The notes under the pieces were generated by a model. It saw nothing but the letters and a program-made list of their open reading frames with translations. It was not told the DNA's origin and made no database searches. From NCBI GenBank assembly GCA_031402865.1, contig JANNST010000052.1, positions 4,089 to 68,088 on the forward strand: a stretch of 64,000 bases of DNA, in the 5' to 3' direction. Numbering within the stretch: the stretch's first letter is position 1; each line of letters opens with the position of its first letter. A program made the position numbers and the translations under genes. The DNA comes from Chloracidobacterium sp. GTDB lineage: Bacteria; Acidobacteriota; Blastocatellia; Pyrinomonadales; Pyrinomonadaceae. Positions 5,029 through 57,090 of this stretch are shown piece by piece.

Positions 5029-6699
5029 ATGACATTGTTTTTTAACACTACGGCTGCGCGGCGATGCGCGTTTGCATTTCTAATCATCGGGACCCTGGTT
5101 ATACAGCCCTTTGCGCAGGCTGCTGCACCCGCGGTTACGCCGCTTTCAACGCTAGAAGGCGAGATTTCGGCGAAAGTCACGGTCGGGACTATCAAAGAAA
5201 TCACCGCAGCCCTTTCGTCCGCGGAAATGCAGGGGCGGGGCACAATGCAGCCCGGCGGCGACAAAGCGGCAAAGTGGATAGCGGACCGATTCCAAAAACT
5301 AGGCCTCAAACCTCTGGGAGACAAGGGTTCGTACCTGCAAAAGATCGATTTCAAGGAAACCTTGTTTACGTCCGACACGATGTTCAAAGTGGGCGATGAA
5401 TCCTTGAAATTTGGCTCTGATTACGCGTTCATCCCGTATTCCAAAGATGATAAGAGTGCGAGCGGCGATCTCGTCTTTGTTGCTTACGGCATTCAGGCGC
5501 CTCAAATCAAGCGCGACGACCTACGAGGAGTATCCATCCGGGGAAAAGTAGTCGTGATGTTGGACGGCCCGCCCGCCAGTATATCCAAAGAGGCTTGGGA
5601 AAAGGGGAACGCCAAGTACGTCATACTAGGGAACATTTTTCGCGAAGGCGCGGCGGCCGTTGTAATAATCGGCCACGGTCGGGAGAAGGACCCGCCTGAG
5701 CTTATCGTCGATTATTTGAGTCGCAGGCAGATTTCCCTCGCGGGCGAAAGCGAACAGTCACAGCCGATACCGCCCATTATCATGGCCGGCAAGGCCGCGG
5801 CTGAAAAATTATTCTCTAAATCGGGCACGACACTTAAAGAAGCTCTTGCAGCCGCGGAGCAAGACAGTTTCAAGCCGATCGATCTGAAACAGACCGCGAA
5901 AATAGTTTCGAAAACAAAGTCTGTTAAGGGCACGGCGAGCAACGTTGTCGGATATATTGAAGGTTCCGATCCAAAACTGAAGGAAGAGGCGGTATTATTC
6001 TCGGCCCACTACGACGCATACGGCACTGAGAATGGCAAGGTTTATTTCGGGGCGGCCGACAATGCCCTTGGCACGGCCGAGATGATGTCGGTGGCGGAGG
6101 CTTACTCACAACTTTCCAGCAAGCCGAAGCGCTCGATGATATTTTTGGCTGTAACCGGAGAAGAATATGGCCTTTACGGTTCGAAGTACTGGGCGAAAAA
6201 TCCGACCTGGAACATCAAGAAGGTTGCCGCTAATCTGAACCTTGACGGCATTGGATCGGAAGTTTACGGGCCCGTAAAGACAATGGTCGGGTACGGGTCA
6301 GAGCATTCCACTATCGGCGTTTTGCTTGATGATCTTGCCAAAACGCTGGGGATAAATGTAATTCCGGATCCGGTGCCGGAAGAAAAAGTGTTTTATCGTT
6401 CGGACCACTATTCGTTTGTCGAACGCGGCGTGCCGGCTCTTATGATCCTCGGTGCTCCGGCCGGCGATAAGGAATTATGGCTTAAGCGTATCGAAGCTTG
6501 GGAAAAGACCGACTATCATCAACCGGGCGACGTCATCCAGCCGAATTGGGCATGGGAAGGTGCCGAAACCGTTGCCGAGACAATGGGCATTCTTGGATGG
6601 CGAATAGCGGACACGGAAACGATGCCGTCATGGCTCGCTGCATCGCGCTTCGCCAAGCTCGAACGCGGAAATACGAAGGAGTTGCCGGAAGAAAAGTAG
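5029..6699 (+). CDS. M28 family metallopeptidase with PA (protease-associated) domain
   Basis: Signal peptide, then a PA-like insert (GKVVVMLDG). M28 metal-ligand contexts are AHYDAYG, GAADNALGTAEMM, TGEEYGLYGS, NLDGIG and SDHYSF. Confidence 0.82.
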   Translation: MTLFFNTTAARRCAFAFLIIGTLVIQPFAQAAAPAVTPLSTLEGEISAKVTVGTIKEITAALSSAEMQGRGTMQPGGDKAAKWIADRFQKLGLKPLGDKGSYLQKIDFKETLFTSDTMFKVGDESLKFGSDYAFIPYSKDDKSASGDLVFVAYGIQAPQIKRDDLRGVSIRGKVVVMLDGPPASISKEAWEKGNAKYVILGNIFREGAAAVVIIGHGREKDPPELIVDYLSRRQISLAGESEQSQPIPPIIMAGKAAAEKLFSKSGTTLKEALAAAEQDSFKPIDLKQTAKIVSKTKSVKGTASNVVGYIEGSDPKLKEEAVLFSAHYDAYGTENGKVYFGAADNALGTAEMMSVAEAYSQLSSKPKRSMIFLAVTGEEYGLYGSKYWAKNPTWNIKKVAANLNLDGIGSEVYGPVKTMVGYGSEHSTIGVLLDDLAKTLGINVIPDPVPEEKVFYRSDHYSFVERGVPALMILGAPAGDKELWLKRIEAWEKTDYHQPGDVIQPNWAWEGAETVAETMGILGWRIADTETMPSWLAASRFAKLERGNTKELPEEK

Positions 6700-6843: not shown

Positions 6844-6931
6844 GCCGGAGTGGCGAAATTGGTATACGCACTAGACTCAAAATCTAGCGGGCTTAACGCC
6901 CATGTCGGTTCGATTCCGACCTCCGGCACCA
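6844..6931 (+). tRNA. tRNA-Leu (anticodon CAA), CCA encoded
   Basis: Manual cloverleaf: acceptor GCCGGAG/CTCCGGC, anticodon stem CTAGA/TCTAG with loop CTCAAAA, long variable arm GGGC-TTAAC-GCCC, T arm GTCGG-TTCGATT-CCGAC, discriminator A, then CCA. Confidence 0.93.
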
Positions 6932-7156: not shown

Positions 7157-8185
7157 CTAATTTCGGCGATAGTTTGTCGTTTGTCCTGTATTACGGTTGT
7201 AGGTCCTAATACCGTTACCGTTCCGGCTGACAGTCGAAGTATCGTTGTTCAGCACGATGGATCCCTGATAATAGTTACCATAAAAAGTTTGACCCCCGAC
7301 GTTAGCGGTTACCGAGCCGTTTGCGTTGATCGTCAATTGAATATCGGATCCATTCGTTGCGTAGAATGTGCCGCGTGCCCAGTCCGGAGGCCTGCTGGAA
7401 TTGCCGCCGCCGCCCGAACCACCGTCGTTGTTACGTGAATAATTCGTTGTCTGTCCCGTATTCCGGTTGTAGGTCCTTATTCCGTTGCCGTTCCTGCTAA
7501 CGGTCGAAACGTCATTATTGAGCGCAATCTCGTTTCGAAAATACGTTCCGTAATATGTCTGGCCATCAACGTTCGCCGACACAGTTCCGTTCTGGTTTAT
7601 CGTCAACGTCGTATCCGAACCACTAGTCGAATAAAATGTGCCGCGTGCCCAGTTCGGCGGAGTACTTGTATTGCCGCCGCCGCCTCCACCGCCTCCGCCG
7701 CCATTCCAGCCGCCGCCGTTTAAGCCGGGCAGGTCATATGTATCGGCTAAAGTGTTGACGTTGGTGCGTAAGCCATTCCATTGACGTTCAAGGTTGCGGC
7801 GGAATGGAAGGGTCGTCATCATTGTGTTGACTGGTCGGGAATCCCGCACCATACTTTCAACTTGATTGCGGCTTTCCCACCATGAATCTCCGCTATCGAA
7901 CTGGCTACGAAGCCGGTCGACCGAATTTTCAAAATCTCTGACGATGTTGTTGAACCGGTCTTCAGCCTGTGAACCGTTCAGATTACTGCGATCCATTTGG
8001 CGGTCGAAATCGCGGCGAAAGGTGTCGCTGCTTTGCTCTAGTCGTGAAATGATGTTGCTCACATCGCTTTTCGAATATCGCGCCGCATAGCGGCCCTGCC
8101 CATTTGCTCCAACCGTCGCAAAAAGCGTCACCATAGCAACGCAAAATACGAATCCCGCAGTGGAAAATCGATAAATGTTTTTCAT
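7157..8185 (-). CDS. secreted protein with a helical N-domain, poly-Gly linkers and two 77-aa tandem repeats
   Basis: Start moved to the internal ATG at 8185 (SD AAGGGAGAG upstream; signal-like MKNIYRFSTAGFVFCVAMVTLFATVGANG). Two near-identical modules PP(N/D)WARGTFY...GIRTYNRNTGQTTNY are separated by Gly-rich linkers. Confidence 0.7.
   Translation of the reverse strand: MKNIYRFSTAGFVFCVAMVTLFATVGANGQGRYAARYSKSDVSNIISRLEQSSDTFRRDFDRQMDRSNLNGSQAEDRFNNIVRDFENSVDRLRSQFDSGDSWWESRNQVESMVRDSRPVNTMMTTLPFRRNLERQWNGLRTNVNTLADTYDLPGLNGGGWNGGGGGGGGGGNTSTPPNWARGTFYSTSGSDTTLTINQNGTVSANVDGQTYYGTYFRNEIALNNDVSTVSRNGNGIRTYNRNTGQTTNYSRNNDGGSGGGGNSSRPPDWARGTFYATNGSDIQLTINANGSVTANVGGQTFYGNYYQGSIVLNNDTSTVSRNGNGIRTYNRNTGQTTNYRRN
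7160..7660 (-). repeat. intragenic tandem duplication (2 x 231 nt separated by a 39-nt Gly-rich linker)
   Basis: Repeat 1 is 7430-7660 and repeat 2 is 7160-7390. Boundaries were set from the PPNW/PPDW codons and the C-terminus. Confidence 0.85.
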
Positions 8186-13973: not shown

Positions 13974-14053
13974 AAGAAAGTTGGCCGCAAGAAGGCACAA
14001 AAGGTTCGAAAAAAGAAGAAAAAGTTTGTTCGGATTATTAAATTCACTTGTCT

Positions 14054-14490: not shown

Positions 14491-14520
14491 CTTTTTGTGC
14501 TTTTTGTGCCTCTTTGCGGC
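14491..14520. repeat. half-copy of the TTTGTGC/TTTGCGGC repeat family
   Basis: ctttttgtgctttttgtgcctctttgcggc is the same unit as at 19471-19502 and 40857-40884. Confidence 0.7.
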
Positions 14521-14522
14521 CC

Positions 14523-15074
14523 TCACTTCTTCTCTTCCTTCACGCCCAATCCGTTGACGACGGTTGAGACTACGGATTCGGCGAAAGTACGTGCAATGCG
14601 TTCGACGGCAGGGTCTTCTTCGTTAAAGAACGAGCGCGGATCGGACGAGAATTCAAATGAATCGCGGAAGATAAAATTCTGATTGTCGTAAAGTATCTTG
14701 TTTTCTTTTAGATCGCGGATGGTCACGGCCGAGACAATGGTCACTTCATAAACGCGGGCCCGACCGTCGCGGTCGAGCAGCACCCCTGTGAAGCTGAAAT
14801 CGCGGACCGTTCCTTCAATAACGGCATCGGCACCGGTCGGCGTTCCCTGGACCTTCAGCCCGTTACCGCGCCGAATGATCTCCTTCGACACAGCCTCAGT
14901 AAACCGCGAGCTAACGCGATATCGAAGCGCCCGTGCTTCAAACTGAAACGCCGGCACGGCAACTATCTTGATGTGCCTCGGCAGGCCCGAATTAGTCACG
15001 GGTTTATAGCATTCGGTAAAGCCCGATACGAAAAGGAGAGTTGCGATAATTGGTAAAACTCTGAGGTATTTCAT
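14523..15074 (-). CDS. lptE: LptE-like outer-membrane lipoprotein
   Basis: Start moved to MKYLRVLPIIATLLFVSGFTEC (lipoprotein-like signal). Size and position upstream of holA fit LptE. Sequence-level support is weak. Confidence 0.45.
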   Translation of the reverse strand: MKYLRVLPIIATLLFVSGFTECYKPVTNSGLPRHIKIVAVPAFQFEARALRYRVSSRFTEAVSKEIIRRGNGLKVQGTPTGADAVIEGTVRDFSFTGVLLDRDGRARVYEVTIVSAVTIRDLKENKILYDNQNFIFRDSFEFSSDPRSFFNEEDPAVERIARTFAESVVSTVVNGLGVKEEKK

Positions 15075-18266: not shown

Positions 18267-19388
18267 TCATTTATCAACCATTATATTACCAAAGGCTAAA
18301 CGGCCGCCGTGCTTGCGAACAAACCCTCCACCCGGCAGTTCGACCAACCGGCCGCTTTTCGGGCTTAGAATCAAACGCTCGATCGATTCGATATGTTTTA
18401 GGCTGATAGAGCGGAGATCGCCGCGGTTTGTGCGTAACCAGGATCGGAGCGTCCGGTACAGCTGGGGTTCTGCGAGTAATTTCAGGTCTTTTATCATCAG
18501 ATCTTTTTGGCTGCCATCCGAGATTCCGCTTTCCGCCTTTCGCGTTACGTCTTCGAGGAGACCGGTCGCCACTGCTCCCGGTTCTGACTGGCGCATCAGA
18601 TCGGCTGTTCGAGCAAGCGTTTCTATTATCTTGGGGTTGAGGTCCGTCAGTACCGGTAACAGTATCTTGCGGACGCGGACACGTTTGAATGACAAATCCT
18701 CATTCATGGTGTCGTAACGGTATTCGACGCCGCATTCACGGCAGAAATTCTCCGTGTCCTTACGTCGCGCCCAGGTGAGGAGCGGGCGGATCAGTAGTTG
18801 AGGAGTGGAGGAGAAGGGGAGAAAGGGAGACGGGGAGATGGGGAGACGCGGAGACACGGAGTCATTGTCTTGTCTGATCTCCGCGTTCCCGTGTCTCCGC
18901 GTCTCCGTGTCACGCATTTCTCGCACCGGCCACATTCCGCTCAGCCCGTCGATGCCGCTGCCGCGAATTAGGTTAAGCAAGAAGGTTTCCGCCTGGTCAT
19001 TCATTGTATGAGCGGTCACAACGCCGTATGCTTTTAGGTTTTCGGCCGTGCGGGTAAGGAAATCGTACCTTGCATCACGGGCGTTCTGTTCGAGATTTCC
19101 TTCAGCCGGGATCGGGCCATGTCCGATCGCGAGTTCGAAGCCCCTTTCGGCCGTCAGATGCTTTATAAACTCCTCGTCGGCATCGCTCTCGTGTCCGCGA
19201 AGCTTGTGATTAAAGTGGGCGGCGACCAGCCGGAGTTTTAATTTATCGCGTTTGCGCAGATCGTCGAGAGCGAGCAAAAGGCTTGAGGAATCGGCACCGC
19301 CGGAGACCGCGACGATCAGTGTTTCGTCGGTAAACGGAAGCCCGAGCTTTCGCCACTCGGTGATCAGATCTCGGACAAACTTGTGCAT
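18267..19388 (-). CDS. tilS: tRNA(Ile)-lysidine synthetase, carrying in-frame repeat insertions
   Basis: PP-loop VAVSGGADSS, NHKLRG, HTMNDQAETFLLNLIRGSG, LIRPLL. The ORF stays intact across the repeats at 18555-18590 and 18798-18915. Confidence 0.9.
   Translation of the reverse strand: MHKFVRDLITEWRKLGLPFTDETLIVAVSGGADSSSLLLALDDLRKRDKLKLRLVAAHFNHKLRGHESDADEEFIKHLTAERGFELAIGHGPIPAEGNLEQNARDARYDFLTRTAENLKAYGVVTAHTMNDQAETFLLNLIRGSGIDGLSGMWPVREMRDTETRRHGNAEIRQDNDSVSPRLPISPSPFLPFSSTPQLLIRPLLTWARRKDTENFCRECGVEYRYDTMNEDLSFKRVRVRKILLPVLTDLNPKIIETLARTADLMRQSEPGAVATGLLEDVTRKAESGISDGSQKDLMIKDLKLLAEPQLYRTLRSWLRTNRGDLRSISLKHIESIERLILSPKSGRLVELPGGGFVRKHGGRLAFGNIMVDK
18555..18590. repeat. copy of the CCGGTCGC(C/T)ACTGCTCCCGGTTCTGACTG element inside tilS
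   Basis: 29 nt match 56598-56626 with one mismatch (my count). Translated in tilS as QSEPGAVATG. Confidence 0.8.
18798..18915. repeat. palindromic GGAGAC(G/A)C-octamer element inserted in frame in tilS
   Basis: Arms 18842-18861 and 18879-18911 include a 17-nt exact reverse complement (cgtgtctccgcgtctcc). The flanking GAGGAGTGGAGGAG also occurs at 63031-63044. Translated as MRDTETRRHGNAEIRQDNDSVSPRLPISPSPFLPFSSTPQ. Confidence 0.8.
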
Positions 19389-19420
19389 TTAAGAGATTAT
19401 AGCCGCAAGCCTGAATTAAT

Positions 19421-19502
19421 AGCCGCAAAAAGGCTCAAAAATCCCAAAAAAGATATTGAGTATATTTCTTACTTTTTGCGCTTTCTGTGCCTTTTTGCGG
19501 CT
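19421..19502. repeat. hairpin of the AGCCGCAAAAAGGC.CA.AAA family
   Basis: The left arm agccgcaaaaaggctcaaaaatcccaaaaaag pairs with the right arm actttttgcgctttctgtgcctttttgcggct. The last 2 nt overlap the argH stop codon. Confidence 0.8.
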
Positions 19503-20883
19503 ATTCCATTTTTTTCTTTGCAGCCAAAAGAGCTTCAGCAACGCGTTTGGGTGATGTTCCGCCGGTTTGGGATTTGCTGGCAAGGGTTTGTTCGAGGCTC
19601 AATGCGTTGAAAACATCAGCTTCGACTTGATCCGAGACCTTCGCTAGATCTTCGAGGCTCATTTGGTGCAGTTCTTTATTCTGTTCGATGGCAGAGAGCA
19701 CAATTCGGCCGACGGTGTCATGCGCGGTGCGGAACGGGACGCCTTTTTTTACGAGGTAATCGGCAAGCTCGGTAGCGTTAAGATAGCCGTTGACGGCGGC
19801 TTCTCGAGTTCTCGCTTCGTTTACGGTCAAATTGTTCAGCACAACAGCCGCGACATTCAGGCACATTCGCACCGTGTCTACCGTGTCGAAAACCGCTTCT
19901 TTGTCCTCCTGCGTGTCCTTGTTGTACGCCAGCGGCAGCCCTTTAAGTATTGCAAGCAAAGCGGTTTGATGGCCGAAGATGCGGCCGGCCTTGCCTCGCA
20001 AAAGCTCAAGCGCGTCTGGATTTTTCTTCTGCGGCATGAGGCTCGAACCGGTAGACACGGCGTCGCTGAGAGTAATAAAGCCGAACTCTGTCGTCGCGTA
20101 AATAATCAGGTCTTCGGCAAGCCGCGAAAGGTGTACCATTATGAGCGAACACGCCCCGACGAATTCGACGGCGAAATCTCGGTCCGAAACGGCGTCGAGA
20201 CTGTTTGCCGAAACGGCATCGAATCCGAGTTCGGCCGCAACGGCTTCGCGGTCGATATTGAAACTAGTTCCGGCAAGCGCGGCCGAGCCGAGCGGCAGAA
20301 TATTCATACGTCGCGCGGCGTCTGACAGTCGTTCGAGATCACGGGACAGCATTTCAAAGTACGCCAGACACCAATGGGTCCAAAGCACGGGCTGTGCACG
20401 CTGAAGGTGTGTGTAGCCGGGCAGGACTGCTTCCTTGTGGCGTTCGGCAGCGGCGATCAGTGCAGCCTGCATACCTTTCGCATCATTTCGAATGTGCTCA
20501 ATCTCGTCACGAAGCCAAAGGCGAAACGCCGTCGCAACCTGATCGTTGCGGCTGCGGCCCGTATGGACTTTTTTTCCGGTGTCGCCGATGAGCTCGACAA
20601 GTCTCGATTCGATAAACGAATGCACATCTTCCGCATCGGAATCCATATAGGCGGGATCGCCAGCGGCTAGTTCGAGTATTGTCCGCAACGCTCCTGTTAG
20701 GCCGGCGTTTTCGTCCTCAGTCAATATTCCCGCCCGCAAGAGTCCATTGGCATGAGCAATACTCGCGCGGACATCGGCGGTTAACAGCCGTTTATCAAAA
20801 CGAAAGGAATTGTTGAATTCTGCGAAGGTTTCATCCGGCTTCCCCGTGAATCTGCCGCCCCAAAGCTGATCGGATTTGTCCAT
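19501..20883 (-). CDS. argH: argininosuccinate lyase
   Basis: Fumarate-lyase signature GSSLMPQKKNPD, with full-length ArgH-like sequence (LWGGRF, TGRSRNDQVAT). Confidence 0.97.
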   Translation of the reverse strand: MDKSDQLWGGRFTGKPDETFAEFNNSFRFDKRLLTADVRASIAHANGLLRAGILTEDENAGLTGALRTILELAAGDPAYMDSDAEDVHSFIESRLVELIGDTGKKVHTGRSRNDQVATAFRLWLRDEIEHIRNDAKGMQAALIAAAERHKEAVLPGYTHLQRAQPVLWTHWCLAYFEMLSRDLERLSDAARRMNILPLGSAALAGTSFNIDREAVAAELGFDAVSANSLDAVSDRDFAVEFVGACSLIMVHLSRLAEDLIIYATTEFGFITLSDAVSTGSSLMPQKKNPDALELLRGKAGRIFGHQTALLAILKGLPLAYNKDTQEDKEAVFDTVDTVRMCLNVAAVVLNNLTVNEARTREAAVNGYLNATELADYLVKKGVPFRTAHDTVGRIVLSAIEQNKELHQMSLEDLAKVSDQVEADVFNALSLEQTLASKSQTGGTSPKRVAEALLAAKKKME

Positions 20884-24462: not shown

Positions 24463-24491
24463 TCGTTGAGCATAGCAGAAGGGAAATTTTA

Positions 24492-24657
24492 ACGCAGAGA
24501 CGCAGAGACGCAGAGACGCTGAGGAAGGAAGGATTAGCCACGGATGAACACAGATGGACACAGATGAATCTCGATATTTTCTGGTTTTCCTATCCGTGTT
24601 CATCCGTGTAAATCTGTGGATGAAATTCTTTTCTCTCTGCGTCTCCGCGTCTCGGCG
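24492..24657. repeat. nested palindrome: outer GCAGAGAC octamers, inner CACGGATGAACACAGATG arms
   Basis: The outer arm acgcagagacgcagagacgcagagacgctgag pairs with ctctctgcgtctccgcgtctcggcg. The inner arm ccacggatgaacacagatggacacagatg pairs with tatccgtgttcatccgtgtaaatctgtgg. Confidence 0.85.
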
Positions 24658-24667
24658 GTGAAAAATC

Positions 24668-25927
24668 CTATCCAAGATAACCGCGGAAGTTCGCCGGGAT
24701 CGCCGTGTACTTCGGAAAAAGCTTTGCAAGATCTTTTGTACCGAGGTGTTTGCTGGCAGCTTCGGCAAAGACATCTCGGAAGTCTGTTGTCAATGCCAGG
24801 TCGCGGCCTTCGTTTAGCTGGTCGGGTTTTAGGCCTTTCCAGTCGCCGTAGACCTTGCCGCCCTTTACGGAATTGCCTAGCACGAACATCGCGTTGGCGT
24901 GGCCGTGATCTGTGCCGCGTGATCCATTTTCGCGGGCCGTGCGGCCGAACTCTGACATTGTCAGCAGAACCACGTCGTCCATTCGCTGGCCAAGATCGGT
25001 TGCGAATGCGGCGATAGCGGCGCCGAAATCGCGAAGCAGGTTCGCAAGCTGGCCGCGGGCTCCGCCTTGGTTAACGTGCGTATCCCAGCCGCCAGCTTCG
25101 GCGAATGCTACTTCTAATCCCACACCCGCTTTTATCAACTGCGCGATCTGCATAAGCGAGCGGCCAAGCGGCGTTGTTGGATAGATCGCACCGTTCTCAG
25201 GCTTGTATTTTGCGGGGTTTGCCTGCTTCAAAAAATTGACCGCTTCGAACGTTTCCTTGCCCGTTTCACCCAGGCTGTCCTTTGTTGCCTGGCCGTAAAC
25301 GCCCTCGAAACCGCCCTGCACATTCTTTGTATAAACGCCGGCTTTGATGGCAAAATCGGCGAGGTTCGTCATCGCGATTGACGGTGAACGTCCGTATAGC
25401 GCTCGGGGCAGTTGCTGTGTCATGGCGACGGCGCGAAACGGCGAATCGTCTTTGCCGGACGTCGCCTGCATTGCCCGATTTAACCAGCCGTCACGTGTAC
25501 CCTTGAATCCTGGCGTGCCGGACTCCATATAATCCTGAGCGTCAAAATGCGAACGCGTGTTGTCGGGCGAACCGGCTGAATGAATAACGGCAAGCTGTTT
25601 CGCGGCCCAGAATTTTTCCAGCGGTTTGAGCGACGGATGCAGGCCGAAAAAGCCATCCAGATTCACGGCACCGTCAGTCTTATTGGGTGCGGGAATAGCA
25701 ATCGTGCGGCGGATATTGTAATACTCGCTGTCACCATGCGGAACAACCATATTCAGGCCATCGACCGCTCCGCGCTGGAATATCGTGACCAAAACCTTCT
25801 TTCTACCGTAACCGTTTTTAGTATCGGCCGCGTTTGCAAACTGGTGTAGAAAGTCCGGTGCGGCGGCCATCATGCCGAAACTTGCCAGTCCGATACCGCT
25901 CGTCTTTAGAAAAAATCTTCTGTCCAT
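24668..25927 (-). CDS. DUF1501 domain protein (sulfatase-like fold, Tat signal)
   Basis: Twin-arginine-type N-terminus MDRRFFLKTSGIGLASFG. SEFGRT..ENGS.GTDHGHAN is characteristic of DUF1501. Confidence 0.85.
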   Translation of the reverse strand: MDRRFFLKTSGIGLASFGMMAAAPDFLHQFANAADTKNGYGRKKVLVTIFQRGAVDGLNMVVPHGDSEYYNIRRTIAIPAPNKTDGAVNLDGFFGLHPSLKPLEKFWAAKQLAVIHSAGSPDNTRSHFDAQDYMESGTPGFKGTRDGWLNRAMQATSGKDDSPFRAVAMTQQLPRALYGRSPSIAMTNLADFAIKAGVYTKNVQGGFEGVYGQATKDSLGETGKETFEAVNFLKQANPAKYKPENGAIYPTTPLGRSLMQIAQLIKAGVGLEVAFAEAGGWDTHVNQGGARGQLANLLRDFGAAIAAFATDLGQRMDDVVLLTMSEFGRTARENGSRGTDHGHANAMFVLGNSVKGGKVYGDWKGLKPDQLNEGRDLALTTDFRDVFAEAASKHLGTKDLAKLFPKYTAIPANFRGYLG

Positions 25928-26873: not shown

Positions 26874-27515
26874 TGCGAAAGCCCGCACGAAGTAAGGGCG
26901 ATACACTCAACGAACCCAATCATCCGTTTCAAACGGCACATCGTCCTGACAATAGAGAACGTAGTTCACAGCCGCCTCGACGTGGGGCGGCTTCCACAAA
27001 TAGCGCCGACTCCGGCCCCGGGACCAAACTCGCTCCGTAGCTCCGACTAGTCCGAGTTCCCTCAACCGTTTCGTCGCAAATGCTTTCATCGCATCAGCAA
27101 TCCTTTCGGGCTTCGCAGCAGCGGATGCTACTGCATGAACATGATTCGTGCGCACGTTCAGCGCATGGAGCCCATAATTTCTTTGGCCGCACAGCATCTC
27201 AATAGCGTCCGTAACGGCTCGTCGCTGGTCGGTTTTTAGTATTACAGGAGACTGCGCCATTTTTTCCTGCATACGTTCTTGAAGCGGCAGATTCGGATCA
27301 AGTTTTACTGTGCCCGGTACATCACGGTTGCTTCGGTTGATCGAAGATCGGTCATCGCCGTGCAGCCACGTTCCGAATGTCCGAAAGGTCATCAGGTATG
27401 CAAGGGGAAACTCGTTTTCTCCGTAGATATCAAATCCGTAGTCGTCGAGCATTTTGAGTTTGAGCGTGCCTCCTTCACTTGAGCATATCGCCCTTACTTC
27501 GTGCGGGCTTTCGCA
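26874..27515 (-). mobile_element. RAYT-like unit: Y1 (HUH) transposase gene bracketed by inverted 35-nt REP-like repeats
   Basis: TGCGAAAGCCCGCACGAAGTAAGGGCGATACACTC at 26874-26908 has its reverse complement at 27481-27515 (33/35 identical). Confidence 0.7.
26907..27452 (-). CDS. IS200/IS605-family Y1 transposase-like protein (REP-associated tyrosine transposase candidate)
   Basis: HUH motif NHVHAV and a C-terminal Tyr region NYVLYCQ. About 181 aa from the internal ATG 27452. The longer track ORF (to 27611) runs through the flanking repeat and the GH92 3' end. Confidence 0.72.
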   Translation of the reverse strand: MLDDYGFDIYGENEFPLAYLMTFRTFGTWLHGDDRSSINRSNRDVPGTVKLDPNLPLQERMQEKMAQSPVILKTDQRRAVTDAIEMLCGQRNYGLHALNVRTNHVHAVASAAAKPERIADAMKAFATKRLRELGLVGATERVWSRGRSRRYLWKPPHVEAAVNYVLYCQDDVPFETDDWVR

Positions 27516-27522
27516 TAAAAAG

Positions 27523-30500
27523 TCACCTGATAATAATCTCATCCACAAAGATCCACGGATCGCCGCCCGCTCCCGGATGCCATGATGGGATCTTGCCGAA
27601 ATTGTAAGCACGGATGCGAACGTAACGGGCCTTTGCCGGTGAGATCGTTTGAGTGAATTCTTTGATCTTAGGCGTCATCTCGCGTCGCGGAAAGCTGGGT
27701 TTGATCTCGGCGGCCTTAGTGAAATTCGTGCCGTCGCTCGAGGTTTCAAATTCGATCCGGTCCGGCATCCATATCCACGGCCCGGCGACCTGTAAAAAGC
27801 TGCCGCCGAGTTCCTTTATCTCCGTTTCCCGCTTTAGATCGATGATCGCGTCATAAGGTTTGCCCTGCACACCCTGCCATTCGCCGCTGGCGAAATTCAC
27901 CGTGCCGCGAATGCCGTCGATGATCGCGTTATCGCCGCCGCCGGTGTACTGAGTGCTGTAGCCGGAGACGACTTTAACGGTCCAGTCGTTCGGACGTTTC
28001 GCAAAAACTGCGTCGACAATCGGGCTTTCATTTCCTGGAGAAAAGTAAGTAAATGCCTTTACTGTGGCCGCAGCTCGGAGGACAACTGGTTCGAAGTATG
28101 TCTTTGATGACCGCGTTGGAGTGCTGCCGTCGGTCGTATAGAAGATCATCGCGTCTGGATTTGTCTTTCGCATCGTCACGATCGTTTTGTCGTTGAACAG
28201 ACGCTCGCCATCAATCACCGGAACCGCCGTCGCAACTCCGTGTATGCTCGAAAGCGGAAATTCAGTGAATGCGGTTTCAACTGGCTGGTCGATCATCGCA
28301 AATTCAAGTACGCCGCCGCGCATAAGTTCTTCATGGGTGATGAAGGCTTTTTTGTAAGGAGAGCCGTTCAGCTTTGCGTTGAGAATATAGATATTCTTCG
28401 GCGACACATGCTTCGCACGGATGGTAAACGTCTTGCCGTTCTCCAACCGGTATGTCATTTCGGGAAACAACGGTGTGCCGAGTGCATAGACGGGCGAGCC
28501 GGGAGCAACGGGATAGAAGCCACCCGCACTTAATATGTACCACGCGGACATCTGGCCGCAGTCCTCGTTGCCGATCAGGCCGTCGGGCGCGTTCTTGTAG
28601 AACTCGTCCATTATCTTTCGGACGTATTTCTGTGTTTTCCATGGCTCGCCGGCGTAGTTGTAAAGATAGGTGATGTGGTGCGACGGCTCGTTGCCATGGG
28701 CGTATTGGCCGATCAGCCCCGTCAGGTCGGCCTGCTCGCGACCGGCGAGTTTCTGGTCGGTGGTAAAGAGTTCGTCGAGCTTTGCGACAAATTTCTCACG
28801 CCCTCCCATCAGCTCCATCAAACGCGTTACGTCATGCGGGACAAAGAAGGAGTATTGCCACGAGTTGCCCTCGGTAAAGCCGAAGGTCACTTCGTTAGGT
28901 GCAAAAGGCTCGACAAAAACGCCATTCTTTTTCGGACGGAAGAAGCCGGTTTTTGTGTCGAAGAGGTTTTCGAAATGGCGAGCTCTATAACGAAAATCCC
29001 CATCTTTGAATGCCGGTGGCAGTTGTTCAATATTTCGATCTCCGCTCCGCGTTAAGCTCGCTTGCATTTGGGCAATGCACCAATCGTTATATGCATACTC
29101 GAGCGTCCGCGATACCGATTCGTTCTCGTCCTCCATTGAGATGTAGCCGCGTTTTTTGTAGGCGGCGAGGCCGAAGTGGTCGAGTTCGGCGGAGTGTTTG
29201 GCGGCCGCATAGGCTTTTTCGTAGTCGAAGCCTTTGATAGATTTAGCCATCGCGTCGGCGATGACCGAGGCGGCGTGGTAGCCGATCATGGTGTCGGTCT
29301 CTTCGCCCCACAGTTCCCAAACCGGCAGCCGCCCGCCCTGTTCGTAGATGCGGATGAACGTGTTTATAAAATCGACCGTGCGTTTCTGGTCGATGATAGT
29401 GTAAAGCGGATGCGCCGCTCGGAAGGTGTCCCATAGGGAAAAAACGGTGTAGTGGTTCTGAAGCTCCCCTCCTGTCTTAGGAGGGGTGGCCGCGTTTCGC
29501 GGACGGGGTGGTGATCCATGTTGAGCAGTAAGCAACGGTGAGCCCTTCCTCACGGTCGGGCTACTTACACGTGCGGCCTTCTGCATTTCGTAGCCCGGCA
29601 AAGAATGAACCTTTCCGTCGTGCCCTTTGTACCGTCCATCTACATCGTTGAAAACGTTCGGCTGGATTATCGTGTGATACAGCGCCGTGTAAAAATTGGT
29701 CGTCTGATCGTTCGTTCCGCCGGAGACCTCTATTTTGGTTAACTCTTTGTTCCAAGCCGCCTTTGCGTCGGCACGAACCTTGTCGAAATCCCAATGCGGC
29801 AACTCGGCAGCTAGGTTCTTGCGTGCGCCTTCGATAGAGACGTAAGAGATTGCGACCTTGAGCAAAAGGGGTTCTTCCGGCACGGTTTGGAATTGAAGCG
29901 ACAATAACCCGCCGTTGCTGGTTGCTTGAGCCGAGGGACCCATTAAACCAGTTGACTCAAGTCCGTTCCCGATCTGACCGCCTGTAAAAAGCTGCGAGAA
30001 TTCTGCCACGAAATACACCGTTTGGTTTTTCGCCCACGAAGTCGAGCGCCTTACACCTTCGATCCGGCGCTGTGCACCGTTAACTGACACGTCTGTTTGA
30101 AGCCATTTGTCACGCCATCTCAGGTCAAGTATCAAATTGGCGTGATCGGTTCTCGGGAATGTATATCTGTGCAATCCAACTCTTTTTGTAGAGGTCAACT
30201 CGGCAAGAATTCCATCGTCATCCAGCTTCACCGAATAGTATCCGGGCTCAGCTTTCTCATTGGCGTGAGAAAATTTAGACGCATAGCCATTAACCGACTT
30301 GTCGCCTTCTTTCGCGAAGAATTGCGGTTCGCCGACAGTCGGCATAAACAAGATATCGCACCCGTCCGGAATGCCGGTGCCGCTAAGGTGGGTGTGCGAA
30401 AAGCCGTAGATGATGTCGTCGGAGTAGTGATAGCCGCTTGAGCCGTCCCAGTTGTCGATGCGCGTGTCGGGCGAGAGTTGGACCATCCCGAACGGCATCG

Positions 30501-30648
30501 TCGCACCGGGAAAAGTGTGGCCATGGCCGCCGGTGCCGATGAACGGGTTGACGTGGCGGGTGTAGTCACGGGTTTGTCCCGCGACAGCAGGCGCTAGGCA
30601 TAGAAGAACTAAAACGCAGAGACGCTGAGACGCTGAGAGAACTTTCAT
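27523..30648 (-). CDS. GH92 family alpha-mannosidase with C-terminal F5/8 type C (discoidin) domain; in-frame repeat insertion
   Basis: NPFIGTGGHGHTFPGA, GFSHTHLSGTG, FSLWDTFRAAHPL and GNEPSHH are GH92 hallmarks. The C-terminal about 150 aa are discoidin-like. Confidence 0.9.
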   Translation of the reverse strand: MKVLSASQRLCVLVLLCLAPAVAGQTRDYTRHVNPFIGTGGHGHTFPGATMPFGMVQLSPDTRIDNWDGSSGYHYSDDIIYGFSHTHLSGTGIPDGCDILFMPTVGEPQFFAKEGDKSVNGYASKFSHANEKAEPGYYSVKLDDDGILAELTSTKRVGLHRYTFPRTDHANLILDLRWRDKWLQTDVSVNGAQRRIEGVRRSTSWAKNQTVYFVAEFSQLFTGGQIGNGLESTGLMGPSAQATSNGGLLSLQFQTVPEEPLLLKVAISYVSIEGARKNLAAELPHWDFDKVRADAKAAWNKELTKIEVSGGTNDQTTNFYTALYHTIIQPNVFNDVDGRYKGHDGKVHSLPGYEMQKAARVSSPTVRKGSPLLTAQHGSPPRPRNAATPPKTGGELQNHYTVFSLWDTFRAAHPLYTIIDQKRTVDFINTFIRIYEQGGRLPVWELWGEETDTMIGYHAASVIADAMAKSIKGFDYEKAYAAAKHSAELDHFGLAAYKKRGYISMEDENESVSRTLEYAYNDWCIAQMQASLTRSGDRNIEQLPPAFKDGDFRYRARHFENLFDTKTGFFRPKKNGVFVEPFAPNEVTFGFTEGNSWQYSFFVPHDVTRLMELMGGREKFVAKLDELFTTDQKLAGREQADLTGLIGQYAHGNEPSHHITYLYNYAGEPWKTQKYVRKIMDEFYKNAPDGLIGNEDCGQMSAWYILSAGGFYPVAPGSPVYALGTPLFPEMTYRLENGKTFTIRAKHVSPKNIYILNAKLNGSPYKKAFITHEELMRGGVLEFAMIDQPVETAFTEFPLSSIHGVATAVPVIDGERLFNDKTIVTMRKTNPDAMIFYTTDGSTPTRSSKTYFEPVVLRAAATVKAFTYFSPGNESPIVDAVFAKRPNDWTVKVVSGYSTQYTGGGDNAIIDGIRGTVNFASGEWQGVQGKPYDAIIDLKRETEIKELGGSFLQVAGPWIWMPDRIEFETSSDGTNFTKAAEIKPSFPRREMTPKIKEFTQTISPAKARYVRIRAYNFGKIPSWHPGAGGDPWIFVDEIIIR
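29458..29585. repeat. composite palindromic element in frame within the GH92 gene
   Basis: Contains perfect small hairpins cccctcc-tgtctta-ggagggg and ccgcg-ttt-cgcgg. The core matches 57091-57136 in reverse orientation. 29558-29584 is a degenerate look-alike of the RAYT-flanking REP. Confidence 0.7.
30614..30640. repeat. GCAGAGAC/GCTGAGAC octamer repeat inside the GH92 signal-peptide codons
   Basis: acgcagagacgctgagacgctgagaga is translated on the minus strand as LSASQRLCV within MKVLSASQRLCVLVLLCLAPAVAG. Confidence 0.75.
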
Positions 30649-33048: not shown

Positions 33049-33058
33049 AGTAGCGAAA

Positions 33059-33201
33059 GGCGGAAACACGACTGGTAGGGAGTGTGTTCTTCAAGATTCG
33101 ACGAAAGAGGCCCAGTCGCTACGAATTCCGGCTACGACACGGAAATCCTTTCCCGCTCGCTGACGCCGGGAAACACACTTCCTACCGGTCGTGTTTCCGC
33201 C
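33059..33201. repeat. GGCGGAAACAC hairpin element, copy 1 (long loop)
   Basis: The left arm is 33059-88. The right arm 33174-33201 reads CACACTTCCTACCGGTCGTGTTTCCGCC. The 83-nt interior contains agtcgctacgaattccggctacgac. Confidence 0.85.
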
Positions 33202-33211
33202 TGTGCGTTCT

Positions 33212-34312
33212 CTACAAACCGATTATATCCAAAAACCGTTTTAGTTCATCCGGCAGCGGCAGGACAAACGCTAATTGCTCTTTTGTAACGGGATGTGTGA
33301 ACGAAAGCTTTTCTGCATGCAGGAAAAAACGGCCCATTATTCGGATCGCATTCTTTACGTCTATGTTCGCGACCGTGTTGTCACGGCCTTCGTTATAGGT
33401 TTCGTCACCCACTACGGGGTGATTGATCGACGCAAGATGGACACGAATCTGGTGCGTGCGGCCGGTTTTTATCTCGACCTCGACAAGTGCGAATTTATCG
33501 AACCGCTTGCGGACCTTCCACAATGAAAGGGCGTTTCGGCCATTTGCGGCGACTGTCATTTTGGTGCGGTGCCAGCGGTCGCGGGCCATCGGCCGGTCGA
33601 TGATGCCCGTGTTGTCACGCGGACTTCCGTGAACGAGGGCGAGGTAGCTCTTATAAACCTCGCGCGTACGGAACAGCTCGGACATCGCTTCGTGTATCTC
33701 CTCGCTTTTGGCGACAACGATGAGGCCGGAGGTTTGTTTATCTAAACGGTGGACGATGCCGACGCGACTTGTATTGGTTGCAGAAGCCTGCACGTTAGTA
33801 AGGGCGATATGCTCAACGTTGGCGGTATCGCCCTTACTTCGTGCGGGCTTCTGCGGCAGAACCTCGTCACCTGCTGACGCAGTTGTTTCTGACCTTACAG
33901 GCTGCATCCCGCTAACGCCGAAATGGTAGGCGATTGCGTTTGCCAATGTGCCCGAACTAACGCCGGCACCCGGATGAACGACCAATCCGGCCGGTTTGTT
34001 GATAACGGCAAGATATTCGTCTTCAAAAACAATTTCGAGCGGGATATTTTCGGGCTCGAACCGGGCGGGCGGGGCTTCGGCAAGGTCTACGTCGATGTCA
34101 TCATTTTCGCGCAGTTTATACGATGGTTTTGCCGTCGCCTGGTTAACCAGAACGTCGCCGTCTTCAATCAAACGCTGAAGACGAGACCGCGACCAGCCTT
34201 CGATGTTCTCCGCTAGAAAGGCATCAAGGCGCTTTCCTACTTCAGAACCGGTAATTGCGAAATTTAGTATCGGATTTTCGTCAGGCGATGGCGGTGTGTT
34301 AGCTGGGTTCAA
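33212..34312 (-). CDS. rluD: 23S rRNA pseudouridine synthase (RluD/RluA family), carrying an in-frame REPIN-like insertion
   Basis: S4-like N-terminus (RLDAFL...SRSRLQRLI), catalytic GIVHRLDKQTSGL, and HQIRVH. Confidence 0.9.
   Translation of the reverse strand: MNPANTPPSPDENPILNFAITGSEVGKRLDAFLAENIEGWSRSRLQRLIEDGDVLVNQATAKPSYKLRENDDIDVDLAEAPPARFEPENIPLEIVFEDEYLAVINKPAGLVVHPGAGVSSGTLANAIAYHFGVSGMQPVRSETTASAGDEVLPQKPARSKGDTANVEHIALTNVQASATNTSRVGIVHRLDKQTSGLIVVAKSEEIHEAMSELFRTREVYKSYLALVHGSPRDNTGIIDRPMARDRWHRTKMTVAANGRNALSLWKVRKRFDKFALVEVEIKTGRTHQIRVHLASINHPVVGDETYNEGRDNTVANIDVKNAIRIMGRFFLHAEKLSFTHPVTKEQLAFVLPLPDELKRFLDIIGL
33780..33854. repeat. 75-nt REPIN-like inverted doublet of the RAYT-associated REP, inside rluD
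   Basis: The reverse complement of the right half contains AAGCCCGCACGAAGTAAGGGCGATA, 25/25 identical to the repeat at 26879-26903. The left half is a diverged direct copy. Confidence 0.85.
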
Positions 34313-35111: not shown

Positions 35112-35130
35112 GGTTTCGATAAGCAATGAA

Positions 35131-35219
35131 GGCGGAAACACGAGCCGTAGCGAGTGTGTTCTTCGTCAGGCCGGGTTATTCGTCATTCAGACACACTCCC
35201 TACCGGTCGTGTTTCCGCC
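35131..35219. repeat. GGCGGAAACAC hairpin element, copy 2
   Basis: The left arm is 35131-35160. The right arm 35192-35219 reads CACACTCCCTACCGGTCGTGTTTCCGCC. The loop is 30 nt and contains the lspA stop codon. Confidence 0.85.
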
Positions 35220-35707
35220 TGCTTTTGTTTGCTCAGGAACATATCTATTATCATTAATCCGGCACCCATAACAATCGCCATGTCGGCGACATTGAATGTC
35301 GGGTAGTGCCATGAGCCGAACTGAACATCGATAAAATCGACGACATACCCGAGCCTGATCCGGTCCGTAACGTTCCCGGCGATTCCAGCAAGGAGCAATG
35401 CGAGCGCACCCAAAATACGATCATCGCTGCGCGGAGTTCTCCAAAAGAAATAGAGTACGAGCGCACCGGCGATAAACGCAACTACCGATAATCCCCAGCG
35501 GCCCGCGTCGCCGTGGTCGTCTAACATGCTGAACGCCACGCCCGTATTTTGAGCGTAGGCAAAATTCAAAAAACCTGAAATGAGAGGTATGTCTTCGCCA
35601 AAACGCAGCCGACGCACCGCCCACGCCTTGCTCGCCTGATCGATCATAAAAACCCCGCCGGCAATGGCGAGGTATGCTATTTTCCAAAGAATATCTTTTT
35701 TATTCAC
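35183..35707 (-). CDS. lspA: lipoprotein signal peptidase II
   Basis: LspA motifs N.G.AF and VVDFIDV....PTFNVAD. The last 11 codons ([11 protein letters not shown]) are encoded by the repeat arm. Confidence 0.9.
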   Translation of the reverse strand: MNKKDILWKIAYLAIAGGVFMIDQASKAWAVRRLRFGEDIPLISGFLNFAYAQNTGVAFSMLDDHGDAGRWGLSVVAFIAGALVLYFFWRTPRSDDRILGALALLLAGIAGNVTDRIRLGYVVDFIDVQFGSWHYPTFNVADMAIVMGAGLMIIDMFLSKQKQAETRPVGSVSE

Positions 35708-40319: not shown

Positions 40320-40338
40320 AAAGTTGATGGCATTAAAA

Positions 40339-40408
40339 GGCGGAAACCCGCACGGTAGCAAGGGTGTGATCTTAAAGAGGCACACTCCCTACCGGTCGTG
40401 TTTCCGCC
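40339..40408. repeat. GGCGGAAACAC hairpin element, copy 3 (short loop)
   Basis: The right arm 40381-40408 is identical (28/28) to 35192-35219. The left arm 40339-40368 is more diverged. Confidence 0.85.
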
Positions 40409-40468
40409 TTCGGAGCCAAGGTCCGTGTCAAACTCTAAATTTTATCATCTATCGGAGGAAAAATCCCG

Positions 40469-40786
40469 TTACTCTTCTTCGACTGTACACAGCAGCGGAT
40501 ATTCGCGGGCTTTTGCGAGATTCATCGCCTTTTCGGATTTCATATTAGCTATCTCATAGGGATACACCCCGGCGAGGCCGAGGCCTTCGTTGTGGACCTT
40601 GAGCATTATTGAAAAGGCTTCGGGGGCTGAACGCATGAAGACGTATTCCAGGACGAAAACGACGAATTCCATGGTGGTGAAATCGTCGTTGTGCAGCAGC
40701 ACTTTGAAAAGCTTTGGTTTTTCGAGCTTTGTCTCGCGTTCGGTCAGAACGTCGCCGCCGCGTTCAATGTCGGGAAATTCGGGCAT
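40469..40786 (-). CDS. clpS: ATP-dependent Clp protease adaptor
   Basis: 105 aa. YKVLLHNDDFTTMEFVV.VL is the ClpS core. Confidence 0.9.
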   Translation of the reverse strand: MPEFPDIERGGDVLTERETKLEKPKLFKVLLHNDDFTTMEFVVFVLEYVFMRSAPEAFSIMLKVHNEGLGLAGVYPYEIANMKSEKAMNLAKAREYPLLCTVEEE

Positions 40787-40815: not shown

Positions 40816-40884
40816 AGCCGCAGAGATGCGCAAAAAGCACAAATATGAAGAGAAATTTTGTGCCTTTTGTGCCTTTTTGCGGCT
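40816..40884. repeat. hairpin of the AGCCGCA.A.A.GC.CAAAA family
   Basis: agccgcagagatgcgcaaaaagcacaaa pairs with tttgtgccttttgtgcctttttgcggct. Same family as 19421-19502 and 14491-14520. Confidence 0.8.
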
Positions 40885-42007
40885 ATATCTTATTGACTTC
40901 GAAGTAGGTCTTAATTGCCTTGTATTTCGCGGAGTCGTTCAGGATATCAAATGCCTTAGCGTAATTCTCCAATCCGTCGATCTTGTGCGTCATCATCTGG
41001 CCGAGCCAGCCAAGGTGCATTGCTTCGCATAGGGCCAGATCTTTAACGCCCATTTCGAAATGCTCGCGGCCGGCGTTCACCGTGCCGACCATCGCGCGGT
41101 TGCCGAGCACGAACATCTGATTGATCTTGTCAGACGGGACCTGATCGGTTTTCCGTTCACCGCCCGTGACGGAGGCGAGGATCAGAATACCGTTTTCGTT
41201 CAATGTCTGCATCGCGTCAAAGATGATCGGCGAATAGCCTGTGCATTCAAACACGAGGTCGTACTGATCGTATTTTTTTATCGATTCGGTAATCGGAAGG
41301 TCATCCGTCGAGTCGTACGTCGCGCCTATCGCTAAACACAATTCGGCGTTCAGATAGCCGTCGCCGCTCTGCTTTCCAAAGCTGTGCACTTCGTAACCGC
41401 GCATCCTCAACGCCATTACCGTCAGCAATCCGACGTTTCCCGTTCCCAACACCGCAGCCGTTTTTGGGTGCCAAATCTTGAGGCGTTCCTGAATATCGCT
41501 CGCTTGTTTGAGCCCTTTCTCGATTATCGAAAGCGGTTCAAGCAGAACCCCTATCTCCGCAATCGGCGCCGGTATCCCTACCAAAAAATCGGCGTCTTCG
41601 ACGTAGAAGTCGGCCATGTAGCCATGCAGGCGTGAGATGCCGCGCTCGAAATACTTATCGTCAGTCGTAAAATCCTGCTCGCCGATCTTGTCATAAATGC
41701 TTGAACCGCGCGGGCGCCGCACCGTAGCTACAACGTAATTACCTGCCTCAAATTCCTTAACATTTTCACCCGTCTCAACAACGCGACCAAAATTTTCGTG
41801 GCCAAGTACAAGATAATCAAAGCCCTTTGGCGCGACGCCGTATTCGCCATTGTTGATCTCGCGGTCGGTGCCGCACGCTCCCACGCGAAGCACTTCGACC
41901 AATACGCCGCGTCCGTTTTTTATTTCACTCAATTCCGGTTTTTTCATCTCGATGAGATGAACACTGTTCATTTTTTCTGGAATTACCGCAATCGCCTTCA
42001 TGTTCAT
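40883..42007 (-). CDS. zinc-dependent medium-chain dehydrogenase, glucose 1-dehydrogenase-like
   Basis: VGACGTDREI, LGHENFG and the Rossmann motif VLGTGNVGL. The overall layout resembles archaeal-type glucose dehydrogenases. The substrate is not established. Confidence 0.7.
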   Translation of the reverse strand: MNMKAIAVIPEKMNSVHLIEMKKPELSEIKNGRGVLVEVLRVGACGTDREINNGEYGVAPKGFDYLVLGHENFGRVVETGENVKEFEAGNYVVATVRRPRGSSIYDKIGEQDFTTDDKYFERGISRLHGYMADFYVEDADFLVGIPAPIAEIGVLLEPLSIIEKGLKQASDIQERLKIWHPKTAAVLGTGNVGLLTVMALRMRGYEVHSFGKQSGDGYLNAELCLAIGATYDSTDDLPITESIKKYDQYDLVFECTGYSPIIFDAMQTLNENGILILASVTGGERKTDQVPSDKINQMFVLGNRAMVGTVNAGREHFEMGVKDLALCEAMHLGWLGQMMTHKIDGLENYAKAFDILNDSAKYKAIKTYFEVNKI

Positions 42008-57033: not shown

Positions 57034-57090
57034 AGGTCGAGCGGCGGCAAGTAGTCGGTAAATTCAATACAGAAGTATATTACAGACCTA

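Follow-up and report, generated by a model that had tools for sequence, protein, structure and literature searches.

A gene for a class-3-type Y1 HUH transposase-like protein (181 aa; 26907..27452, reverse strand) lies between two inverted copies of a short repeat, here called REP-A, in the 64-kb stretch of DNA that we analysed as a whole and refer to as the window. The gene was delimited by its open reading frame and translation, its conserved start, its invariant residues and its predicted fold. The repeat arms, 26874-26910 and 27479-27515, each span 37 nt with 568 nt between them, and 35 of their 37 positions are complementary (95%). A preliminary description of this DNA had placed the gene between inverted copies of a 35-mer with 33/35 identity; direct reading returns the same count for the 35-mer, and the inverted arrangement holds for the 37-nt arms.

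One REP-A unit adjoins the 3' end of the Y1 gene and overlaps its stop codon (26874..26912, forward strand). It was recognized as an inverted-repeat arm, by the logo of 196 copies and by a structure descriptor, which matches it at 26881. The unit comprises a foot, TGCGAAA (26874-26880), a hairpin, GCCC GC AC GAA GT AA GGGC (26881-26899), and a tail, GATACACTCAACG. The other unit (27479..27515, reverse strand), inverted and with its foot outward, is located upstream of the gene and was recognized as an inverted-repeat arm and by the descriptor. The stop codon of a GH92 gene falls 8 nt before it. The promoter scan found no sigma-70-like promoter upstream of the Y1 gene, and read-through from the co-directional GH92 gene is suggested as a plausible route to its transcription. 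No tnpB lies near the Y1 gene.

The 25-mer AAGCCCGCACGAAGTAAGGGCGATA occurs exactly three times in the window, at 26879(+), 27486(-) and 33826(-), and had no match in 100 shuffles. As the preliminary description had noticed, an inverted doublet of the repeat lies inside rluD: two REP-A units, 33779-33817 (forward strand) and 33817-33855 (reverse strand), form a REPIN-like head-to-head doublet (33779..33855) in frame inside a RluD-like ORF (33212-34312, reverse strand). The doublet occupies the loop preceding the RVGIVHRLD motif, and its folding energy is -33 kcal/mol (z = -9.6). The degenerate copy that had been reported inside the GH92 gene is present in part. Local alignment identified a REP-A half copy made of the foot and 5' half, TGCAGAAGGCCGCACGTGTAAGTA, at 29562..29585 (reverse strand) within an in-frame composite GH92 insert, but the most conspicuous repeat of that insert (29479-29512) belongs to an unrelated family and pairs with 57090-57123. 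After the half copy comes a second hairpin of the same plan, GCCC GA CC GTGA GG AA GGGC.

A structure descriptor for this plan detected 11 sites in the window (shuffles gave 0-1), and these sites represent three families. Family A accounts for four of them. Family B, GGCGGAA ACAC GA CC GGTA GG GA GTGT, is found at 33066, 33194, 35138, 35212 and 40401, and family C, GTCAGAA CCGG GA GC AGTR GC GA CCGG, at 18581 and 56617. The families were found by repetition alone, independently of the pairing descriptor. Rfam contains no family for these repeats, its sole match in the window being a tRNA. Since a tblastn search detected no other Y1-like gene in the 64-kb window, the cognate genes of families B and C would be located elsewhere.

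The Y1 gene and its protein

The mechanical ORF extends to a GTG at 27611, which would yield a protein of 234 aa. We rejected this reading because 40 aligned homologues begin at MLDDYGF, which puts the start at the ATG at 27452. The resulting 181-aa protein contains both motifs singled out in the preliminary description, the HUH-bearing RTNHVHAVAS and AAVNYVLYCQ with its C-terminal tyrosine. Judged by alignment, the HUH motif corresponds to N103-H104-V105-H106, and the putative catalytic tyrosine is Y164 within YVLYCQ (Y----Q), on a helix predicted at residues 155-167; the protein ends ~12 residues beyond this motif. Across 40 close homologues H106, Y164 and Q169 never vary and H104 hardly does; R replaces H104 in one relative, P0069. 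Down to ~30% identity, H104 (invariant or nearly so), H106, W143, Y164 and Q169 are retained, as is an N-terminal stretch, PLAYLITFRTYGTWLHGD, down to 30% identity. Y164 is nearly invariant in distant homologues as well. Family-wide the tyrosine motif reads YV[VLIM]xxQ, and distant members have YVVEGQ, YTINEQ or YVRDEQ.

The matches of the protein to the available profiles are weak and fall short of the cutoffs. Against Pfam Y1_Tnp (PF01797), the model proposed in the preliminary description, it scored 18.3 bits (E = 0.0026; gathering threshold 23), and 39 of 40 close relatives match this model at E <= 0.01, the best at 3.3e-10. A RAYT model, the other kind proposed there, also gave a low score: NCBIfam REP_Tyr_transpos (NF047646) gave 21.2 bits (cutoff 80), which is sub-threshold and about equal to the likewise sub-threshold 20.6 bits of the NCBIfam IS200 model (cutoff 55). 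Of the sequence searches against the PDB, that with the protein alone was uninformative and that with a profile was marginal (E ~0.8 to IS200 transposases).

The superfamily was settled by the fold search. With an AlphaFold (AF2) model of the 181-aa protein as query (pLDDT 81), Foldseek ranks 1-30 in the PDB were exclusively Y1 transposases of the IS200/IS605 family or REP type, with a best match to 2xma (E = 6.6e-5) and TM(target) values of 0.58-0.67. These top 30 include ISDra2, IS608 and the Sulfolobus IS200 enzyme, with E. coli TnpA_REP (4er8) at rank 15, and H104-V-H106 aligns with the HiH of 2f4f and 2ec2. Together, the fold matches and the conserved residues indicate that the protein is a Y1 HUH enzyme, and the modelled structure and profile scores suggest that it stands at roughly equal distance from IS200 TnpA and canonical RAYTs. 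The family is large: a word-indexed search returned >1,000 homologues, and a full HMMER scan gave 1,796 clusters at 50% identity (E <= 1e-10).

Structure and spread of REP-A

The REP-A unit is ~38 nt long and reads, in order, foot, GCCC, GC, AC, G(N1-2)A, GT, AA, GGGC and a tail, GATA..CTCAAC. In structural terms the foot TGC[A/G]NAA is followed by a 4-bp GC-rich stem, a 2x2 internal loop (GC/AA), a 2-bp stem (AC/GT) and a GNA or GNNA loop. The logo of 196 copies has a sharp 5' boundary at TGC[A/G]NAA, upstream of which the sequence is random. Many copies have CAGA or CGGA in the foot, the overall form being C[A/G]NA(A), and the gene-flanking copies read GCGAAA. We considered whether the variant foot TGCGAAA immobilises the gene and dropped the idea, as the same foot is found in 9 of the 196 dispersed copies, doublets included.

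Across 240 copies the loops vary freely (GAA 57, GTAA 52, GTTA 44 and GCA 18, with GTGA, GTCA and GGA also seen), and the stems are fixed except for the inner A-T pair, which is changed to G-C on both sides in 12 variants. When the families, two other lineages and published sequences are compared, both-side changes are seen at five of the six pairs. The covariation score is 0.74; shuffles reach 0.19, and sliding the partners leaves <= 0.09. The figure of 100% pairing is partly circular, because part of the covariation alignment was picked by a descriptor that requires pairing. Under standard DNA parameters the predicted folding of one REP-A unit on its own is no stronger than that of shuffles (z = -0.2); the single unit is thus not predicted to be stable, and support for the hairpin comes from covariation. 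In DNA, C(GNA)G mini-hairpins have an unusual stability, which the energy model may underestimate.

A scan for the REP-A pattern covered one genome per species, and its counts of 8-kb stretches are lower bounds. At least 118 stretches, drawn from ~30 or more assemblies, carry REP-A, and one MAG contributes at least 18 of them; the matches listed are all from Pyrinomonadaceae, 'Chloracidobacterium' or Blastocatellia MAGs. The repeat is abundant outside the window, and it has spread as inverted doublets, coding regions included, in the acidobacterial background that the preliminary description had thought probable. That background is Pyrinomonadaceae, and the RluD doublet is a coding-region example. 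Among the matches listed, close pairs were '+-' (head-to-head) in 58 cases, '-+' in 2 and direct in 20, and the '+-' pairs had a modal gap of 16 nt, 44 of the 58 falling at 13-20 nt. The head-to-head doublet is the dominant form of REP-A, which is the arrangement of a REPIN; this answers the question, posed in the preliminary description, of whether copies occur mainly as inverted doublets. Most units (174/196) are not deep inside long ORFs, and ~11% are.

Association of gene and repeat, and polymorphism of the inserts

Among the matches listed, only 2 of the 118 REP stretches carry the Y1 gene. Both of these (L025 and L101) represent the orthologous locus, beside the GH92 3' end, with inverted REP-A copies on either side of the gene, so that the flanking repeats looked for at orthologous loci in relatives by the preliminary description are present. 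More broadly, REPs of the same plan directly adjoin the gene in 6/6 of the other homologue loci for which the DNA extends past the gene at either end (L025, L101, L121, L123, L124 and L125). At L121, which encodes a 75%-identical homologue, the gene order is lspA, lgt, rluD, GH20, GH92, gene, 2OG oxygenase, DUF1501; from rluD to DUF1501 this is the neighbourhood seen in the window, and part of it is found at L025 and L101. Syntenic orthologues gave dN/dS values of 0.17, 0.08 and 0.10 at dS 0.48, 1.5 and 1.6. Synteny combined with low dN/dS at dS 1.5-1.6 indicates that the gene has been kept in place under purifying selection past synonymous saturation, and these sequence comparisons support vertical inheritance of the Y1 gene. 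The 25-mer is likewise identical across species whose synonymous sites are saturated.

At greater distance (~60% identity; L123, L124 and L125, on Mb-scale contigs), the gene sits amid irregular arrays of same-plan REPs. The outer stem reads ACAC/GTGT or ACCC/GGGT in L123 and L124, where the foot TGCAGAA and the internal loop are preserved. A metagenome scan with the family-B pattern located a class-3 gene flanked by family-B REPs (L148), and the metagenome scan also placed a family-B REP just past the 3' end of a class-3 gene (L184). From these two gene-repeat pairs, each repeat family apparently has its own gene, and there seems to be one class-3 gene per repeat family.

Presence and absence of the inserts could be followed at several sites. 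The RluD insert is missing from close orthologues that are 88-92% identical (P0122, P0128, P0133 and P0135). The P0136 RluD carries the same QKPARSKGDTA peptide, P0124 and P0130 carry related peptides, and further orthologues have different repeat-derived inserts in the same loop. The RluD loop is, on these alignments, a genic insertion hot spot, and its presence/absence polymorphism is a sign from which repeat mobility may be inferred. In an orthologous spacer (window 40320-40475), the family-B-type doublet seen here is replaced by a family-A doublet in L015. At the L029 site orthologous to the position after GH92 there is a REP(+), 77 nt and a REP(-), and the Y1 gene is absent. This REP pair suggests that the repeats persist, at least for a while, when they lack a local gene.

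We consider it likely that the locus is a REPtron-like unit, consisting of a vertically inherited gene for a class-3-type Y1 (HUH plus one Tyr) protein, a putative endonuclease/transposase of single-strand DNA, and two inverted cognate REP-A copies with their feet outward. The same features could instead describe an autonomous insertion sequence of IS200/IS605 type (~640 bp, gene plus ends), the doublets being internally deleted MITEs that were moved in trans. A doublet does amount to the two arms of the Y1 locus placed end to end with no gene between them, L029 has the two arms 77 nt apart and lacks the gene, and Y----Q is near the Y---Q motif of IS200. An insertion sequence of this kind is nevertheless unlikely, as the gene occupies one chromosomal slot across species at dS 1.5-1.6 with dN/dS near 0.1 and, among the matches listed, both of its occurrences are at the syntenic locus. 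In addition, the ends are inverted, whereas the hairpins of IS200/IS605 elements are both on the same strand; tnpB is lacking; and the distant loci have irregular REP arrays around the gene instead of two defined ends.

The window protein can also be compared with IS200/IS605 TnpA (IS608, ISDra2). These proteins are its best structural matches and share with it the HUH motif and a single tyrosine on a C-terminal helix; presumably they also have in common that they recognize small imperfect hairpins on single-stranded DNA, the foot providing a guide sequence. Their tyrosine motif is Y[IV]ENQ, compared with Y----Q in the window protein, which according to the model also has ~30 additional residues at the N-terminus and an insert of 30 residues predicted with low confidence (residues 32-52). 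The gene described here is not visibly multi-copy or mobile.

Relation to known Y1 and REP systems

RAYT, REP, REPIN and BIME systems have reportedly been treated by Nunvar in 2010, Bertels and Rainey in 2011 and Ton-Hoang in 2012. With the RAYT/TnpA_REP systems (E. coli YafM, PDB 4ER8; P. fluorescens SBW25), the present one shares an apparently vertically inherited Y1 gene, which seems to be one for each repeat family; inverted cognate flanking repeats; inverted doublets that form long hairpins; and several repeat families per genome, each apparently with its own gene. It differs in that the Y motif has no NP, GTAG is lacking and the unit hairpin is weak and has an internal loop.

Quentin et al. 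(2018, BMC Genomics 19:475; PMC6006769) divided Y1 proteins into three classes. Class 1 is IS200, with the motif Y---Q, and class 2 is TnpA_REP/RAYT, in which Y---NP is common to all members (PMC6006769). Class 3 proteins have a median length of 178 aa, NHVH, W[TA], YV[VI][AENY]EQ (Y----Q) and a 155-aa profile that reaches into the N-terminus, and occur in Planctomycetes, Acidobacteria and Proteobacteria at 1.2 copies per genome (PMC6006769). The class was described from 14-24 proteins, among them ABJ83664.1, ABJ83822.1, ADG69454.1 and ABQ56422.1 as reference proteins, and was flagged as possibly intermediate between IS200 transposases and domesticated RAYTs (PMC6006769). Its REP-like hairpins are atypical, with a 5' CnGA foot, and number ~600 copies in Solibacter usitatus; the structures were called weak (PMC6006769). 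One published class-3 REP is CAGAGCCGCGACCGTCAGGGAGCG, with the structure ((((..((....))..)))), and others are CCGAG CCGC GA CC GTAA GG GA GCGG from Legionella and CAGAG(C) CGC GA CC GTCA GG GA GCG from Solibacter (PMC6006769).

The preliminary description had identified the gene as a RAYT. A Y1 HUH gene with inverted flanking repeats is indeed present, but it is very unlikely that the gene belongs, with REPINs of its own, to the canonical RAYT clade (TnpA_REP; class 2, or groups 2/3 of Bertels). The flanking inverted repeats, the predominance of doublets, synteny and purifying selection would all suit a canonical RAYT; 4er8 is among the fold matches; and JGI names the homologues 'REP element-mobilizing transposase RayT'. 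That name, however, is the name of COG1943, a label that covers the entire Y1 superfamily, and 4er8 ranks behind the IS200/IS605 TnpAs. The tyrosine motif is YVLYCQ instead of the Y---NP universal in class 2, the REP_Tyr_transpos score is far from its cutoff and about that of the IS200 model, and a GT[AG]G foot is missing from the repeats, whose single units are not strong palindromes.

By published motifs, and by published REP sequences and architecture, the protein fits class 3 TnpA_Y1. The likeness extends to length (181 vs 178 aa), NHVH, a conserved W (VWSR), Y----Q (YVLYCQ), extended N-terminal conservation, the acidobacterial host and an apparently low gene copy number. REP-A likewise has the ((((..((....))..)))) plan, a weak hairpin, a short 5' foot and a high copy number. 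REP-A differs from the published class-3 REPs in its foot, TGC[A/G]NAA, whose free third position makes it fit CnGA only partly, in its internal loop, which is GC/AA and not GA/GA, and in its loops, which are often GNA triloops. To our knowledge, there has been no biochemistry on any class-3 protein, and no population analysis since the class was described.

The weak folding of the single REP-A unit matches the remark of Quentin et al. on weak class-3 structures (PMC6006769). Head-to-head doublets, deep synteny and in-frame genic inserts are not reported for class 3 in that paper and are all seen here, and its 14-24 proteins compare with ~1,800 clusters in the present scan (50% identity, E <= 1e-10) (PMC6006769). 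The preliminary description had regarded a RAYT/REPIN-like system outside Proteobacteria as new; that claim falls, as class 3, together with its REP-like hairpins, had already been recorded in Acidobacteria and Planctomycetes (PMC6006769; see also PMC3733652). Di Nocera et al. (2013; PMC3733652) described acidobacterial Y1 genes with flanking repeats (TIRYT/TIRtrons), as well as REPs inside genes. TIRYT/TIRtrons share with our locus the acidobacterial Y1 genes and the inverted flanking repeats that form moderately abundant families, but they are mostly class 2.1, with a C-terminal HTH and GGGGWSAS in long TIRs (PMC3733652). The HTH and GGGGWSAS are both lacking here; GGGGWSAS is absent from both gene-flanking arms.

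It is very improbable that the repeats serve the host in regulation or structure, as terminators, mRNA stabilisers or protein-binding sites, and are kept by selection or gene conversion, with a Y1 gene irrelevant to their spread. Most copies are extragenic, doublets form very stable hairpins, and identity of the 25-mer past synonymous saturation could reflect host-level selection. Same-plan repeats directly flank the gene at every homologue locus examined, however, and the stems of the repeats vary with the lineage of the gene. In addition, family B is arranged in the same manner around a class-3 gene of its own, and in-frame genic copies with presence/absence polymorphism behave as mobile elements.

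The mechanism that we propose for the REPtron-like unit is modelled on those of IS608 TnpA and E. coli TnpA_REP. The TnpA-like enzyme would bind the REP-A mini-hairpin on single-stranded DNA, for example the lagging-strand template, and may read the foot as a guide or cleavage signal. Y164 would cut, with an HUH-bound metal, and rejoining would follow. REP units would be copied or moved in this way, mostly as head-to-head doublets acting as REPIN-like non-autonomous elements, and the gene would stay put. We infer catalysis, the cleavage site, the active strand and repeat movement by this very protein from these better-known enzymes.

Class-3 Y1/REP systems are already known from Acidobacteria (PMC6006769, PMC3733652), and the current picture of REPs and RAYTs is unchanged. 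The predominance of doublets, deep synteny, multiple coexisting families and a genic hot spot are useful additions to it. Tentatively, and with slightly more reserve than conviction, we suggest that class-3 genes and footed mini-hairpins constitute a third, independently domesticated REPIN/RAYT-like partnership. This partnership would be widespread in Acidobacteriota and other phyla (~1,800 clusters), with a recognition code of its own, made up of the TGCRNAA foot and a hairpin interrupted by a 2x2 internal loop, several families per genome each with its own gene, and repeated in-frame insertion into surface loops of housekeeping proteins, for example RluD. If so, repeat-encoded peptides would have been added to housekeeping proteins such as RluD. 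With its sharp repeat boundaries, covariation-backed structure and single chromosomal position, the Pyrinomonadaceae system is a clean comparative example, and it offers a practical starting point for work on whether class-3 proteins cut and mobilise their repeats, how foot and hairpin may be read, and whether REPIN-like elements originated repeatedly.

Further repeat families on the class-3 plan

A second repeat family in the window, family B (GGCGGAA ACAC GA CC GGTA GG GA GTGT; 33057-33219, 35125-35225 and 40337-40410), has the same hairpin plan as REP-A, the family whose inverted copies flank the Y1 gene. A third family built on this class-3 plan, family C (GTCAGAA CCGG GA GC AGTR GC GA CCGG), lies on the minus strand at 18549-18590 and 56585-56626. 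Family-B units form intergenic head-to-head doublets in the spacers around rluD, lgt and lspA, and the corresponding spacers of L121, a locus with a homologue of the window's Y1 gene, also hold family-B units. In L148, a metagenome locus, family-B REPs flank a class-3 Y1 gene of their own, which is frameshifted; in a second metagenome locus (L184), one family-B REP lies immediately beyond the 3’ end of a class-3 Y1 gene.

One orthologous intergenic spacer carries different doublets in different genomes: a family-B-type doublet in the window (40320-40475), but a family-A doublet in L015, from a Blastocatellia MAG (5059-5317). The left unit of the window doublet (40337-40372) looks like an A/B hybrid, combining a B foot with a GC/AA internal loop. 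Another locus with a Y1 homologue (L123, 6964-14162) contains two REP subtypes, with outer stems ACAC/GTGT on one strand and ACCC/GGGT on the other. In the doublets one subtype supplies the left arm and the other the right, an arrangement that resembles the E. coli BIMEs with their Y and Z REP types.

Repeats outside the class-3 plan and the tRNA gene

Several further intergenic families consist of short periodic units, often of 8 nt (AGTCGAGAG.., ACGCAGAG.., GGAGTGGA.., GCCGCAAAAAGGCACAAAA), frequently arranged as inverted pairs, and are unrelated to the class-3 plan. Such intergenic repeats were found at 2272-2371 and 58503-58568; 24482-24524, 24634-24668 and 30605-30638; 18796-18829 and 63019-63052; and 13984-14011, 14494-14523, 19418-19505 and 40817-40886. 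A coding region contains a 270-nt tandem duplication (7169-7693; repeat families D1 and D4; 70-78% identity). The sole Rfam match in the window was a tRNA gene (6844-6928).

Repeats within and beside coding sequences

The GH92 gene (27523-30648, minus strand) carries an in-frame composite insert (29460-29590, including ..SSPTVRKGSPLLTAQHGSPPRPRNAATPPKTGGELQ..), made up of an unrelated palindromic repeat, a REP-A half copy and another hairpin of the class-3 plan. The palindromic repeat (29479-29512) occurs a second time at 57090-57123. Directly after GH92 in L029, from MAG SE1515_concoct.bin.35, two inverted REP-A units separated by 77 nt stand without a Y1 gene (about 1440-1600), reflecting either gene deletion or an 'empty', doublet-like state.

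In the RluD-like ORF (33212-34312), the loop preceding the RVGIVHRLD motif (about 33760-33900) is an insertion hot spot, in the window and among orthologues P0122-P0168. Some close orthologues have no insert at this position; others have the identical REP-A peptide or a related REP peptide, and in others again the peptide is unrelated but likewise repeat-derived (for example EPPASAGG or PPYDGGVAG..ADGVV).
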